This document shows positions 24,338 to 34,475 of a DNA stretch of 64,000 nt, piece after piece. The notes under the pieces are model-generated. The model ran no database searches. It had not been told where the DNA came from and saw only the letters and a program-made list of their open reading frames with translations. The stretch is taken from IMG/VR virus record IMGVR_UViG_2667527592_000002. One strand, written 5' to 3'. The translations under genes and the position numbers were made by a program. The stretch's first letter is position 1. Each line of letters begins with the position of its first letter. The DNA is from a virus (Duplodnaviria > Heunggongvirae > Uroviricota > Caudoviricetes).

Positions 24338-24424
24338 GGAGAGTAGGGAGCATGGTGCTCAAGCGGTCTTGAAAACCGTCCCATTGCGCAAGCGATGATG
24401 GTTCGATTCCATTACTCTCCGCCA
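24338..24424 (+). tRNA. tRNA-Ser-like (anticodon TGA), long variable arm, atypical D-arm
   Basis: acceptor GGAGAGT/ACTCTCC, anticodon arm GCGGTCTTGAAAACCGT, T-loop TTCGATT, CCA; D-arm non-canonical. Confidence 0.6.
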
Positions 24425-24584
24425 TCGCAACGTTAAGAGTATTTGGCTAATTAAGCGAATGCCGGAAGCAGAACCGGATCACCAAATGCGTACAGGCGTC
24501 ATCGCCGCCCAGCCAGCCAAGTGCTCTTACCATTGCGGTGAATGCGGCTAAGCGCACGCGGAACAGTTAAAACAATCCTCCTTA

Positions 24585-24908
24585 GTGGTTAAGTCAAACA
24601 TCCCGGCGTTAATTGTTAACTGGTTAACGTCACCTGGAGGCACCAGGCACCGCAATCTAATAAAGTTTCAAGCAATGGGGTTTTTGTTGTCAGACTTCAG
24701 ATATAGATGGTTGTGGAAGGAGAGCCTGTACATAGTGCAGTTATTTCTTCCGCTATTTGTCTGCTTTGTCATGCTTCCTGAGCTGAAATACGCAATTTCA
24801 GACACTTTAAGCACTATCGTTACTTTTGTGTTTTATCTTTACTTTGATTACTTATTGAGCACTAAAATCAATGAATTATCCGAGGAAATGCAAGGTGGCT
24901 GTAAGTGA
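24585..24908 (+). CDS. small hydrophobic protein (start uncertain)
   Basis: ORF between tRNAs with two predicted TM helices. Confidence 0.25.
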   Translation: MVKSNIPALIVNWLTSPGGTRHRNLIKFQAMGFLLSDFRYRWLWKESLYIVQLFLPLFVCFVMLPELKYAISDTLSTIVTFVFYLYFDYLLSTKINELSEEMQGGCK

Positions 24909-24909
24909 T

Positions 24910-25038
24910 GGATTTTTGGGCGTTTGCCGATAAGAACCCTGGTTGGACATTTTTATTTTTGCTGGTGGTTGCATATGGGGTCGAGCAAGCGGCTAAAGCC
25001 TTACGCGGTTCTGGCAAAAAGCGTAAGCGGAATTAACA
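24910..25038 (+). CDS. small membrane protein (42 aa; below ORF-track cutoff)
   Basis: MDFWAFADKNPGWTFLFLLVVAYGVEQAAKALRGSGKKRKRN; one TM helix, basic tail. Confidence 0.25.
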
Positions 25039-25045
25039 GTAATCT

Positions 25046-25121
25046 GGCCCTTTAGCTCAGTGGTTAGAGCAGGCGACTCATAATCGCACGGTCACCGGTT
25101 CAAATCCGGTAGGGGCCACCA
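25046..25121 (+). tRNA. tRNA-Ile2-like (anticodon CAT, lysidine type) or tRNA-Met
   Basis: 76 nt; near-identical arms to E. coli ileX as recalled: GGCCCTTTAGCTCAGTGGTTAGAGCAGGCGACTCATAATCGC... Confidence 0.9.
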
Positions 25122-25575
25122 TATTTGGTTGTAACACGGCGTATGGCACATGCGTCGTTAGCGGTCTGGTGTAGCTGTTAGGTACCTTACTAACACTGCA
25201 TGGGCACATCAGGTAGCCGGAATGTGCAAGTCACCGCTGGAGGGATAGCGGACTCAGGGACTCACCATCCTGGCGATTCGGTGTGACAGCCGGAATAGCA
25301 CGGCGCACAACAGGAAAAGGCGTTTAATTAACGCGAGCGCCGTTTCCGTTGTGGTAATTGCGGCTATGCGCTCGTGACGAAGCCATTTTCATTCACTACG
25401 TTCTGATAAGTGACGTCGCCGGGAGTGGCTAACCTGGCAGGTGGAGGCACCACCGCCACAACTCCTTTCAATTCATCATATAGCCGCTCAGGCTGTACCC
25501 CTTAATTAATACGAAGTTACGACATCACTACCGGTACTTCCGGGGGATAGTCGCGCGTGTAAAAAAGGAGACGTT

Positions 25576-26151
25576 ATGTTAATGGCGAACGATAACGCAT
25601 ATGCAGAAGAAGATCTCATTTTGAGTGACTTCATAGGGAAGCGGGAACGCTGGACCCAAAAGCGAGAGGAACTTTACGCCTCATTAGTTCGCAAAGGCGT
25701 CAATATCGAAACCGCACAAAGCGGCGATATGACAGTGGTAAGCGTTGGATTGCACGGTGTAAGCGTGTCAGCAATCAATCATGAGCCATACGTTGCGTTA
25801 TCCGAGTCAATGGTAAGGTTAGTTAAGTTCCTGAAGTACACAGAAGCGAATAATGTAATCATTGGCAAAAAGAATATCCCTTTTTCCTCGGCTTTTTACT
25901 GGATGATGAAAGGGCTTGATGCCCGGCGGACATCATGGCCTAAAGGGAGCTATATATCGATGTTCCGTGGCAGCATTGGCAGCAAAGAAAAGCTCTTCGA
26001 ATTCTTGCCGGAAGAGGCATTCGATATTGTGGAAGGGTGCGATGTGATGGTGATGCCTCGCCTGGTAATGATGAATGGGGATTTACAGGCGCAGACAGAC
26101 TGGTTTGCAACTGGTGTGGATATTATCGCGACTGACTGGGAGGCTTTCTGA
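25576..26151 (+). CDS. hypothetical protein with DUF2829-like C-terminal region
   Basis: ...AFYWMMKGLDARRTSWPKGSYISM...QTDWFATGVDIIATDWEAF. Confidence 0.35.
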   Translation: MLMANDNAYAEEDLILSDFIGKRERWTQKREELYASLVRKGVNIETAQSGDMTVVSVGLHGVSVSAINHEPYVALSESMVRLVKFLKYTEANNVIIGKKNIPFSSAFYWMMKGLDARRTSWPKGSYISMFRGSIGSKEKLFEFLPEEAFDIVEGCDVMVMPRLVMMNGDLQAQTDWFATGVDIIATDWEAF

Positions 26152-26543
26152 TGTACGGGACTACCAAATTAAGCACTCAACAGGCCACCAATATGGAGTG
26201 GTCTATCGCTAACTGTAAGATTGTGTCATGCAATGCCACGCGTACTGATGTGGGCCATAAAAGCACTATAACAGGCTATCTAGTAATGACCACCAGGGGG
26301 ATGAGGGTTAGATTTCGCTGGAAAGCAGAGCAAGTAACGCCATTCAGAGAGCCATCAATGCCGCTGCAGGTTGAGCAGGATTATCTATGTTTACCAGAAA
26401 TAGATGGAGGAATGCTGGTGGAGTCTGATGGTAGTAAGGCTGATTTTGAAGCCAATTTGAAGCTGGCACAGGCCGTAATCAATAGTTATCGCGGAAAGTG
26501 GATCGCAAAAGTGAAACATGTTGTTCGTTTGTCTCGCTGGTAG
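26151..26543 (+). CDS. hypothetical protein
   Basis: 130 aa ORF, ATGA overlap with upstream gene. Confidence 0.3.
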   Translation: MYGTTKLSTQQATNMEWSIANCKIVSCNATRTDVGHKSTITGYLVMTTRGMRVRFRWKAEQVTPFREPSMPLQVEQDYLCLPEIDGGMLVESDGSKADFEANLKLAQAVINSYRGKWIAKVKHVVRLSRW

Positions 26544-26651
26544 CGTTAGGTATTTAATATTAGTTTTCTAATATAATCATCTTTTTACCAGTCTATACAG
26601 TTTTAACATTCTCATTATCATCCCCTCGGTCATTTCCTGCCCGGGGGATTA

Positions 26652-27044
26652 ATGGAACAAATCAGCAGCGCAGAAATTGCGGATATCATGATCAGGGCTG
26701 ACTGCTATCTGACAGTCACTGAAATTACCACTCTCGCCAAAGAAAAATACCCTCATCTCCATGTTTCACGAGTAAGTGTAACTAACATCATTCGTCATTT
26801 TGTTCGTTCAAGCAGGGCAATCTGTGAGCTGGATGATCGTGTGTATCCACGAAAATACTGGCTACATGGTCTGAACGGATATCAGTTCAAGGTGCGCGGG
26901 CGCACGCCTGAATACGGTAGCTTACTGGTTAAAAACTGTAGCAGGAAATCAGTCGAACAGGCGCGAAAAGAGCAACGAGAGCTGGTGGACATGGCGAATA
27001 AGCTGTGGAATGCCGCCGTTAAAAAGCGTGGTGTTGCTTTATGA
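26652..27044 (+). CDS. hypothetical protein (late-activator position upstream of terminase genes)
   Basis: 130 aa; position only. Confidence 0.3.
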   Translation: MEQISSAEIADIMIRADCYLTVTEITTLAKEKYPHLHVSRVSVTNIIRHFVRSSRAICELDDRVYPRKYWLHGLNGYQFKVRGRTPEYGSLLVKNCSRKSVEQARKEQRELVDMANKLWNAAVKKRGVAL

Positions 27045-28405
27045 GTCTGGTTAATTGGGAGGAGCACCGCGCCCGCTTTATAGCGTTGCGTGAAGAAAAA
27101 GGGATCACTGTAAAGGAATACTGTGAGGAGCATGGCCTTAGCTTCAATACAGCCAGAAAGCATCTCAATATGAAAAAAAATGAGGTGCGGTCGCAGGTAA
27201 AGACAACAAAAAAAAGCACCAAATCACCTGAAAAAAAACGGGCGGGAAGAGCAACAAAAAAGCTGGAAGAGGGTGCAGAAAAAACAAAATTTACAGAAAT
27301 TGACAATTCGCAGGGTGCAGGTTCTTTCCGAAGTATGCCAAGAAAGAAAACTTCGGATCATGAAAGTAATTCCAATAATAACAATGAGATAAAAGAATCT
27401 GTCAGGAGATCATTGCGCGAAAAAATGGCGAAAATGATCCCCGAAGAAGATAAAAGCGCCCCAAAAATTGAGGGATCTTCAGCAATGATCCCTGGCGGTG
27501 CTGTGCAACGTGCCACATTGCCCACTACGAATGTGGCTCGCGACATGATGAAGAACGGCGCAGAAGAACACCTGCGGTTAGCAATTCAAATGGCGCAAGA
27601 GCGCGCACTTCAGTATCAAAGCATTGTTGATCAGGAGGCCGAACGTCTACAGGCGGAAATAGACGCCTTGGGCGATAAAGAGCCAGAAGGAATGCACCCT
27701 GGGCAGCGCCTTCTCGGTCTAATCAGTGACGCGGCCTACTACATGAATGATTTTATCAGTAGGTTGGCAGCTATATATCAGTCCGAACAAAAGCTGCGAC
27801 AGGGGGATGAAAAGCTTCGTCAGAGCGCTCGCCAGCAAGCATTCAAAGAGGCTGAGGCCAGAGAAAAACTCGAATTAGCACGCCTACAGGCCGAACAGCG
27901 TGGCAAAGAGATTGAATATCGCATTGGCGCTGACGCACGCGCTGCCAGAGTTATCGCCGCCGCTATACGTATGCGTGAGCGCGAGGAACTGGATGATATC
28001 GGTGTTGCTGAATACATCGAGCGCCAGGGGGTCAGCGTCCCGGCTATCCTCGCGGCGCGCGCGGCGAAAGCTATCACTCTTCTCGAACCACCTGTTTCTG
28101 ACGTCAATGATGTTGATGATGAACAGCTGGACAAAGAGGCAAGGGAGTTTGCAACGCTTCAGGCTAACCATCCGCAATGGCTGGCAGAGCGCCGGGCGGA
28201 TGTGGCAACCATTGTTGAAGAATTGGGGTGCGGAGATTACGACCGCAATGGCGAGCGTAAAGCTGGAGAATTCGAGGCCAGCGACGAAGAGCTGGATATT
28301 GACCCTTCGGCAACGGCTGAAATTTACGGTGATTATGATGCATCTGATGCAGGGTATGACGCCGGAGATGATGATATCGCGATAGAACCGCCGGAGGATG
28401 ATTAA
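27041..28405 (+). CDS. terminase small subunit-like (PacA-like)
   Basis: 454 aa, N-terminal HTH-like region, basic linker, acidic C-terminus; directly upstream of large terminase. Confidence 0.45.
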   Translation: MSLVNWEEHRARFIALREEKGITVKEYCEEHGLSFNTARKHLNMKKNEVRSQVKTTKKSTKSPEKKRAGRATKKLEEGAEKTKFTEIDNSQGAGSFRSMPRKKTSDHESNSNNNNEIKESVRRSLREKMAKMIPEEDKSAPKIEGSSAMIPGGAVQRATLPTTNVARDMMKNGAEEHLRLAIQMAQERALQYQSIVDQEAERLQAEIDALGDKEPEGMHPGQRLLGLISDAAYYMNDFISRLAAIYQSEQKLRQGDEKLRQSARQQAFKEAEAREKLELARLQAEQRGKEIEYRIGADARAARVIAAAIRMREREELDDIGVAEYIERQGVSVPAILAARAAKAITLLEPPVSDVNDVDDEQLDKEAREFATLQANHPQWLAERRADVATIVEELGCGDYDRNGERKAGEFEASDEELDIDPSATAEIYGDYDASDAGYDAGDDDIAIEPPEDD

Positions 28406-33797: not shown

Positions 33798-34475
33798 ATG
33801 AATAACATGACAACGAAAGAGCTTTTGACGGCACTTCCAAAATACAAAAGCCATAAAACAGTTCGTGCCTCAAAAATCAAAGATATCGAAATTATCGCCC
33901 TAATGGATGTGGTCCTTCTTTGCAACATCGAAGTCGTTGAGCCAGAAGGGGTAAAAGTCCATGTTGATAAAATGTTTTTGCAAAAACACCGACCAGAAAT
34001 TGGCGGATATCTGGTCGCTTATGAGGACGGATCTCTGTCCTATTCACCAGAAAAAACATTTGAAGAAGGCTTTAGTCGGACTAACGACTTCTTCGAAAAT
34101 GGGGCATTGCTCAGCATTGAAGGTCACAATGGGGTGACATTCATTACAGCCAGGGACGTAACTATTTCTGCTGGCGGTATCGCTACTCTACAAGAAGAAA
34201 TCGACCTTGAAGCAGCCGACTTTTCTGACGCGCTGATGTGGCTGAAGGATGGCAAGAAAGTTGCTCGACGCGGGTGGAACGGCGAAAACCAATTCTGCTG
34301 GCTGGTTCCTGAAGGACAGTACCCGGCACGAATGGAAGCCATTAAGGGATATTTCCCCGGCGACCTCGTTCCGTATGGTGCTTATTTCGCCTTAAAAAAT
34401 GCACAAGGTGTAGTTGTTCCGTGGGTTCCTTCTGTAGGCGACTTACTGGCATGTGACTGGTTTGTAGTGGAGTAA
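33798..34475 (+). CDS. two-domain protein with C-terminal DUF2829 (Tad2-type)-like domain
   Basis: ...DALMWLKDGKKVARRGWNGENQFCWLVPEG...VVPWVPSVGDLLACDWFVVE. Confidence 0.5.
   Translation: MNNMTTKELLTALPKYKSHKTVRASKIKDIEIIALMDVVLLCNIEVVEPEGVKVHVDKMFLQKHRPEIGGYLVAYEDGSLSYSPEKTFEEGFSRTNDFFENGALLSIEGHNGVTFITARDVTISAGGIATLQEEIDLEAADFSDALMWLKDGKKVARRGWNGENQFCWLVPEGQYPARMEAIKGYFPGDLVPYGAYFALKNAQGVVVPWVPSVGDLLACDWFVVE

Follow-up and report, generated by a model that had tools for sequence, protein, structure and literature searches.

A two-domain Tad2-family protein with a non-canonical ligand pocket in a D6-like phage-plasmid

The gene at 25576..26151 of a phage-plasmid sequence raises the question of whether a Tad2-family protein that has retained one part of a known ligand pocket and lost another still acts as a sponge for an immune signal, and if so, for which one. 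Tad2 sponges are a major phage route to silencing Thoeris, CBASS and Pycsar signaling. Specificity drifts between the homologs, which vary in their action on type I, II and IV Thoeris, CBASS and Pycsar, and a second pocket is usable (bioRxiv 10.1101/2025.08.24.671296; 10.1101/2024.01.03.573942). The window analyzed here is the whole 64,000-nucleotide stretch of DNA from a Caudoviricetes record of IMG/VR (IMGVR_UViG_2667527592_000002). The region around the gene shared 97.6% identity with the P1-related phage-plasmid Escherichia phage D6, and the local order was pmgS, tRNA-Asn/Thr/Ser, tciA/B-like ORFs, a CAT-anticodon tRNA, D6 orf6 (the gene in question), orf5, lpa, pacA, pacB and c1. An earlier note on this DNA had described the gene as the first one after the tRNA island, and orf6 is indeed the first sizeable gene past the last tRNA (25046..25121). 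The features that concern orf6 and its relatives in the window are as follows.

25565..25570, + strand: Shine-Dalgarno sequence AAGGAG, 5 nt before the ATG of orf6 (read from sequence)
25576..26151, + strand: D6 orf6 homolog, complete gene for a two-domain Tad2-family protein (191 aa, 21.6 kDa, pI 5.0; corresponds to YP_009914683.1)
25576..25869, + strand: N-terminal domain (aa 1-98), alpha-alpha-beta-beta-beta-alpha, with a dsRBD-like or 'phage ABA sandwich'-like fold
25882..26145, + strand: C-terminal DUF2829/Tad2-like domain (aa 103-190)
26151..26543, + strand: downstream ORF, D6 orf5 (130 aa, phrog_7004), translationally coupled to orf6
33798..34475, + strand: canonical DUF2829 paralog (225 aa) with pocket motifs GWNGEN and PWVPSVGDLLACDW

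The orf6 product was 100% identical in amino acid sequence to the D6 protein, with three synonymous differences at the DNA level, and matched phrog_7362 over its full length (E 8.5e-136). AAGGAG was also kept upstream of the Shigella homolog. Comparison with an E. coli plasmid allele of 92% identity gave dS of 0.45 and dN of 0.038 (dN/dS 0.083), and the ratio was 0.045 for the C-terminal and 0.113 for the N-terminal domain. The Shine-Dalgarno sequence, the identity to D6 and the low dN/dS therefore demonstrate that orf6 is a real gene under strong purifying selection. Its product is acidic and soluble (GRAVY -0.07), with no hydrophobic segment (the Kyte-Doolittle maximum over 19 residues was 1.2). 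A promoter scan found no sigma-70 consensus on the + strand upstream of the gene, and the P1 C1 operator consensus, with up to 3 mismatches, had no match anywhere in the window. C1-type early control of orf6 could thus not be shown, and early expression is no more than a possibility.

When 1.84 billion cluster representatives were scanned exhaustively with phmmer, only 16 proteins were detected at E <= 1e-3; the orf6 proteins therefore form a small, divergent clade, whose full-length members share the two-domain layout down to about 20-25% identity. Homologs from Shigella (54% identity), Enterobacter (43%) and Pantoea (25%) were all encoded directly upstream of lpa, in each case on a non-mobilizable D6-like plasmid of 80-90 kb; in the window, Lpa was confirmed at 26652..27044 (Pfam PF25716, E 5e-57). 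The orf6 gene was present in 98 of 5,426 complete E. coli genomes (about 2%), where it was always plasmid-borne and its carriers were always D6-like phage-plasmids. In PLSDB the family was found on 125 plasmids, with Escherichia, Salmonella, Shigella, Pantoea and Enterobacter as hosts, and within the phage collection it was found only in D6. When aligned with the Shigella plasmid, the orf6-orf5 block was 48-68% identical, versus 79-98% (25100-25499) and 80-89% (lpa, pacA) for its flanks. The block is a divergence island that holds its position, which is typical of counter-defense genes.

The start codon of orf5 overlaps the TGA of orf6 (TGATG, 26149..26153). D6 and the Shigella plasmid have this gene, and the relatives from Enterobacter, Pantoea and E. 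coli (MINF_7C) lack it. Because several orf6-bearing relatives lack it, orf5 was rejected as an obligate partner of orf6. Its product had no match in Pfam, NCBIfam, PADLOC or the PDB, and it may be a second accessory or counter-defense gene in the same variable slot.

The earlier note had proposed a DUF2829-like C-terminal region in the orf6 product, quoting two segments of it, AFYWMMKGLDARRTSWPKGSYISM and QTDWFATGVDIIATDWEAF, which correspond to aa 106-129 and aa 173-191 of the 191-aa protein. The proposal was borne out by Pfam: PF11195, the former DUF2829 that is now named 'Thoeris anti-defense 2-like domain', matched aa 103-190 with 39.1 bits (E 1.1e-9; profile positions 3-72 of 73), above the gathering cut-off of 25 bits. 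The same profile scored 80.3 bits on the paralog at 33798..34475, in agreement with the expectation that orf6 would be the weaker match. The K/R-R-x-W spacing suggested for both proteins held in part, in that R118 aligns with the canonical Arg; the exact spacing is R-R-x-x-W in orf6 (R117, R118, T119, S120, W121) versus R-R-x-W in the paralog. A precomputed PF11195 assignment was also present on close relatives of the orf6 protein, and NCBIfam and PADLOC gave no matches for the protein itself.

A search of the PDB with the single sequence returned only chance matches to malate dehydrogenase (E 0.6-1.9), and a family profile was needed. The clade profile matched every solved Tad2 in the PDB, with E-values of 1.3e-10 for AcrIIA7 (9KZR, a 158-residue chain), 1.4e-10 for SptTad2 (8WJD), 1.7e-10 for HgmTad2 (8KBI, deposited as "Inhibitor of Type II CRISPR-Cas system" / apo-AcrIIA7) and about 3e-8 for ModTad2 and SPO1 Tad2. 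An AF2 model built with the clade alignment (mean pLDDT 88.3) consisted of two domains, and the top seven Foldseek matches of the model in the PDB were Tad2 structures (TM 0.73 for SPO1 Tad2). The Tad2 protomer fold was recognized in the model, with an N-terminal helix alpha1, an antiparallel beta-sheet, an insertion after beta2 and a short C-terminal helix before the last strand. The profile matches and the top Foldseek hits thus establish, by sequence and predicted structure, that the orf6 protein belongs to the DUF2829/Tad2 fold family.

RefSeq already makes this family assignment, correctly, its current (PGAP) name for the same gene being 'Thoeris anti-defense Tad2 family protein', and in terms of annotation the gene is ordinary. 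What is not routine is confined to its non-canonical pocket, its clade-restricted N-terminal domain and its co-occurrence with a canonical paralog. Three names were observed across records for this one family: 'hypothetical protein' (also in D6), 'MW1434 family type I TA system toxin' and the Tad2 name given above. A gene labeled 'Tad2 AcrIIA7 (anti-Thoeris)' was reported in 93% of D6-like and 56% of P1-like clinical phage-plasmids, in a count that does not specify which of the paralogs was detected (bioRxiv 10.1101/2025.09.12.675607). A search of the accessible supplementary files of an 84-sponge screen recovered neither the orf6 protein nor its paralog (bioRxiv 10.1101/2025.08.24.671296).

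Pocket residues were mapped using HMMER and MAFFT alignments to HgmTad2, SptTad2, ModTad2 and SPO1 Tad2. The two pocket motifs of the orf6 protein, and the residues corresponding to the published ligand contacts of SPO1 Tad2 and HgmTad2, are listed below.

25936..25947, + strand: altered beta1-beta2 ligand loop, W121-P122-K123-G124 (canonical W-N-G-K-G; N changed to P, one residue missing)
26101..26121, + strand: second pocket motif, W176-F-A-T179-G-V181-D182 (canonical W-x-x-S-x-T/S-D; W and D retained, S changed to T, T changed to V)
SPO1 W25, HgmTad2 W21: W121, retained
SPO1 N26, HgmTad2 N22: P122
HgmTad2 G23: missing, the loop being one residue shorter (W-P-K-G versus W-N-G-K-G)
SPO1 W73, HgmTad2 W87: W176, retained
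SPO1 S76, HgmTad2 S90: T179, a conservative change
SPO1 T78, HgmTad2 T92: V181, hydroxyl lost
SPO1 D79, HgmTad2 D93: D182, retained

The ligand-stacking Trp pair is retained as W121 and W176, both of which were invariant in a 15-member clade alignment, and R118 was likewise an invariant residue of the clade. The position following the first Trp held P, R, D, M, N, G or H in different members, i.e., it is unconstrained, and the orf6 protein lacks the Asn-Gly that contacts the diphosphate. Among 108 parsable DUF2829 proteins (from the top 120 identified with a broad profile, a sample biased to Bacteroides HgmTad2-like proteins), 106 had W-N-G and 103 had S..T-D. G-W-N-G was present in the paralog at 33798..34475, HgmTad2, SptTad2, ModTad2 and, in the HMMER alignment, SPO1 Tad2. 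In HgmTad2, gcADPR binding was lost in the W21A/N22A and S90A/T92A/D93A mutants, and a non-canonical gcADPR site was described in only about 1% of Tad2 proteins, which were estimated to be non-functional for gcADPR binding (Li et al.).

A second site also differed. Cyclic-dinucleotide binding by HgmTad2 is abolished by mutating R31, S47, F70 and N85. The orf6 protein has the long HgmTad2-like insertion after beta2, but the four key residues are absent, aligning with F130, F143, M160 and T174, in an alignment that is of limited reliability within the insertion; by this alignment, the protein falls outside the HgmTad2-type cyclic-dinucleotide subclass. Given the altered W-N-G loop and the changed dinucleotide residues, neither known Tad2 pocket appears to be conserved in the orf6 protein at the sequence level. 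The clade has conserved residues of its own, W109, G132, P145 and P161, which are absent from canonical Tad2.

Characterized sponges differ from the orf6 protein in several ways. The long-insertion sponges HgmTad2 (AcrIIA7; 8KBI-8KBM, 8WJC, 9KZR) and SptTad2 (8WJD) have the W-N-G loop instead of the shorter W-P-K-G, and the orf6 protein adds a structured 98-aa N-terminal domain. ModTad2 (9EIB, 8V3E), which binds His-ADPR of type II Thoeris and cUMP/cCMP of Pycsar, is a single-domain protein of about 87 aa that retains G-W-N-G-K-G and W-T-P-S-V-S-D. SPO1 Tad2 (gp34.65; 8SME-8SMG, 8WJE), the founding 3'cADPR sponge, is a member of the same family with a short insertion and without an N-terminal domain; besides the contact positions listed above, its H71 corresponds to T174.

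The closest point of comparison within the window is the paralog, which belongs to the same C-terminal domain family and is likewise a longer protein with an N-terminal extension on the same phage-plasmid. BLASTP found no significant similarity between the two proteins, which are connected by profiles alone. Unlike orf6, the paralog has canonical pocket motifs and twice the Pfam score, and the N-terminal regions of the two are unrelated (different PHROGs). Proteins of the P1-like phages Ro157c2YLVW and SJ46 matched the paralog end to end with 98% identity, and D6 matched only aa 100-225 of its product (86.5%); the element is therefore a mosaic of the D6 and P1 groups, and the N-terminal half of the paralog is in turn a swappable module.

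Taken as a whole, we consider it probable, with some reserve, that the orf6 protein is an oligomeric sponge for a nucleotide-derived immune signal, with a ligand or binding mode unlike that of the canonical 3'cADPR Tad2 and with the paralog covering the classical target. The C-terminal Tad2-fold half of this soluble, acidic, two-domain protein would assemble into a homo-oligomer (in the solved Tad2 cases a tetramer, built as a dimer of V- or X-shaped dimers), whose inter-subunit pockets would bind and sequester a small nucleotide-derived signal that the host makes on infection. Candidate signals include the cADPR isomers or His-ADPR of Thoeris, the cyclic oligonucleotides of CBASS and the cNMPs of Pycsar. 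With the signal sequestered, the host effector would stay off and the D6-like phage-plasmid would be protected. That the ligand, or the way in which it is held, differs from canonical 3'cADPR-binding Tad2 is suggested because the two Trp and the Asp are kept and the Asn-Gly diphosphate loop is lost and variable in the clade. The classical 3'cADPR specificity is probably covered by the paralog. The combination of retained stacking Trp, lost phosphate loop and a coexisting canonical paralog provides a convenient natural setting in which to ask how a sponge is re-targeted by changes in its pocket, and also whether phage-plasmids accumulate several sponges as a means of persisting in clinical Enterobacteriaceae.

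The N-terminal domain was modeled confidently on its own (aa 1-98, pLDDT 89.2) and was seen only in its own family in a profile search of 5.8 billion proteins. A BFVD search with this domain gave nothing at E <= 1e-3, the best-shaped match being to a protein labeled 'Phage ABA sandwich domain' (TM 0.64), with DRBM proteins next. Pfam searches with the N-terminal domains of 12 members gave nothing consistent, and a PDB profile search with the domain gave only spurious ankyrin and MoaC matches (E >= 0.008). Known structures that resemble this domain alone include 1R7L, a B. cereus prophage protein of the 'phage ABA sandwich' type, and dsRBD/HPF folds. The resemblance to dsRBD extends neither to sequence similarity nor to RNA-contact motifs, and such a common small fold does not establish homology. 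Neither a dsRBD profile match nor a basic RNA-contact surface was found; the domain is acidic (pI 5.6), without a basic helix start or basic patch, and is therefore not read as an RNA-binding domain. It is more likely to be an oligomerization or partner-binding module than an RNA binder and, being located beside the tetramerization helix alpha1, could alter assembly. We tentatively suggest, as a possibility that goes beyond the sponge reading above, that the clade represents a distinct, clade-restricted class of two-domain Tad2-fold proteins that has dispensed with both the Asn-Gly diphosphate loop and the HgmTad2 dinucleotide pocket and sequesters a different, possibly undescribed, enterobacterial immune signal, with a pocket perhaps shaped by the N-terminal domain, alongside the canonical paralog. 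If true, one element would neutralize two signaling pathways.

The main alternative, which we regard as rather unlikely, is that the Tad2 fold is kept without signal sequestration, with DUF2829 serving as a scaffold for protein-protein or nucleic-acid interaction, possibly via the dsRBD-like N-terminal domain; the site just upstream of the late activator gene lpa might then link the protein to replication or late-gene control. The observations that speak for a scaffold are that both experimentally defined pockets are altered and the clade shows no constraint on the position following the first Trp, that an extra conserved domain with dsRBD/HPF-like topology is present, that W109, G132, P145 and P161 are conserved in this clade, and that some Tad2 proteins are estimated to be non-functional with respect to gcADPR (the 1% of Li et al.).

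Less probable still, and by a wide distance from the sponge with an altered ligand or binding mode, is a canonical type I Thoeris inhibitor that binds 3'cADPR (1''-3' gcADPR) as SPO1 Tad2 does, with the loop change being neutral. Family membership and fold, the retained W, W and D, the conservative S to T change and the fact that most tested Tad2 homologs inhibit type I Thoeris all fit this possibility. However, the diphosphate loop combines an Asn to Pro change with a one-residue deletion, T is replaced by V at the adenine-contacting position, and the presence of a canonical-motif paralog in the same element argues for a division of labor rather than redundancy.

A type I toxin-antitoxin toxin ('MW1434 family') or an AcrIIA7-type anti-CRISPR is hardly credible, even though relatives carry the toxin label in RefSeq and PLSDB and HgmTad2 was first published as AcrIIA7: a 191-aa, acidic, soluble protein without a hydrophobic segment is not a small hydrophobic membrane-active peptide, PADLOC gave no match, and the anti-Cas9 activity of HgmTad2 could not be reproduced. 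Type II-A CRISPR is not known to occur in E. coli or Salmonella hosts. The MW1434 label can be traced to a set of S. aureus prophage genes that was compiled on bioinformatic grounds alone (PMC6266405). The family now has a different name in RefSeq, and the toxin label looks like an old annotation error that continues to spread.

The region between the tRNA genes and orf6 contained additional features.

24338..24424: tRNA-Ser, anticodon UGA, with a long variable arm
25046..25121: CAT-anticodon tRNA, designated tRNA-Met by ARAGORN
25122..25575, + strand: non-coding stretch between the last tRNA and orf6, about 455 nt

The non-coding stretch was much better conserved than orf6; relative to the Shigella plasmid, identity was 79-98% over 25100-25499 and 53-67% over orf6 and orf5. 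No Rfam family, + strand sigma-70 consensus or sizeable ORF was found in it, and its possible roles are those of a leader, a promoter/operator region or a small RNA. Its first ~190 nt were shared with P1, where they lie downstream of trnI. This P1 homolog of the CAT-anticodon tRNA is annotated as tRNA-Ile2 (ileX-like, with a lysidine-modified CAT), and the tRNA at 25046..25121 is therefore probably an AUA-reading isoleucine tRNA. The tRNA-Ser at 24338..24424 scored 44.6 with the Rfam tRNA-Sec model, just below the gathering threshold of 47, and in the D6 record tRNAscan-SE would not call the amino acid of the matching tRNA. In the tciA-like region, 24534..24654 had a sub-threshold match to Rfam STnc100, a gammaproteobacterial sRNA (39.4 bits versus a gathering threshold of 47, E 3e-6). 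The alignment of 24400..27100 with D6 was broken into two pieces covering 86%, and neither the ORF at 24585..24908 (107 aa) nor that at 24905..25036 (43 aa) has the size of D6 tciA (435 nt) or tciB (165 nt); the tciA/B-like segment therefore seems to be rearranged relative to D6.
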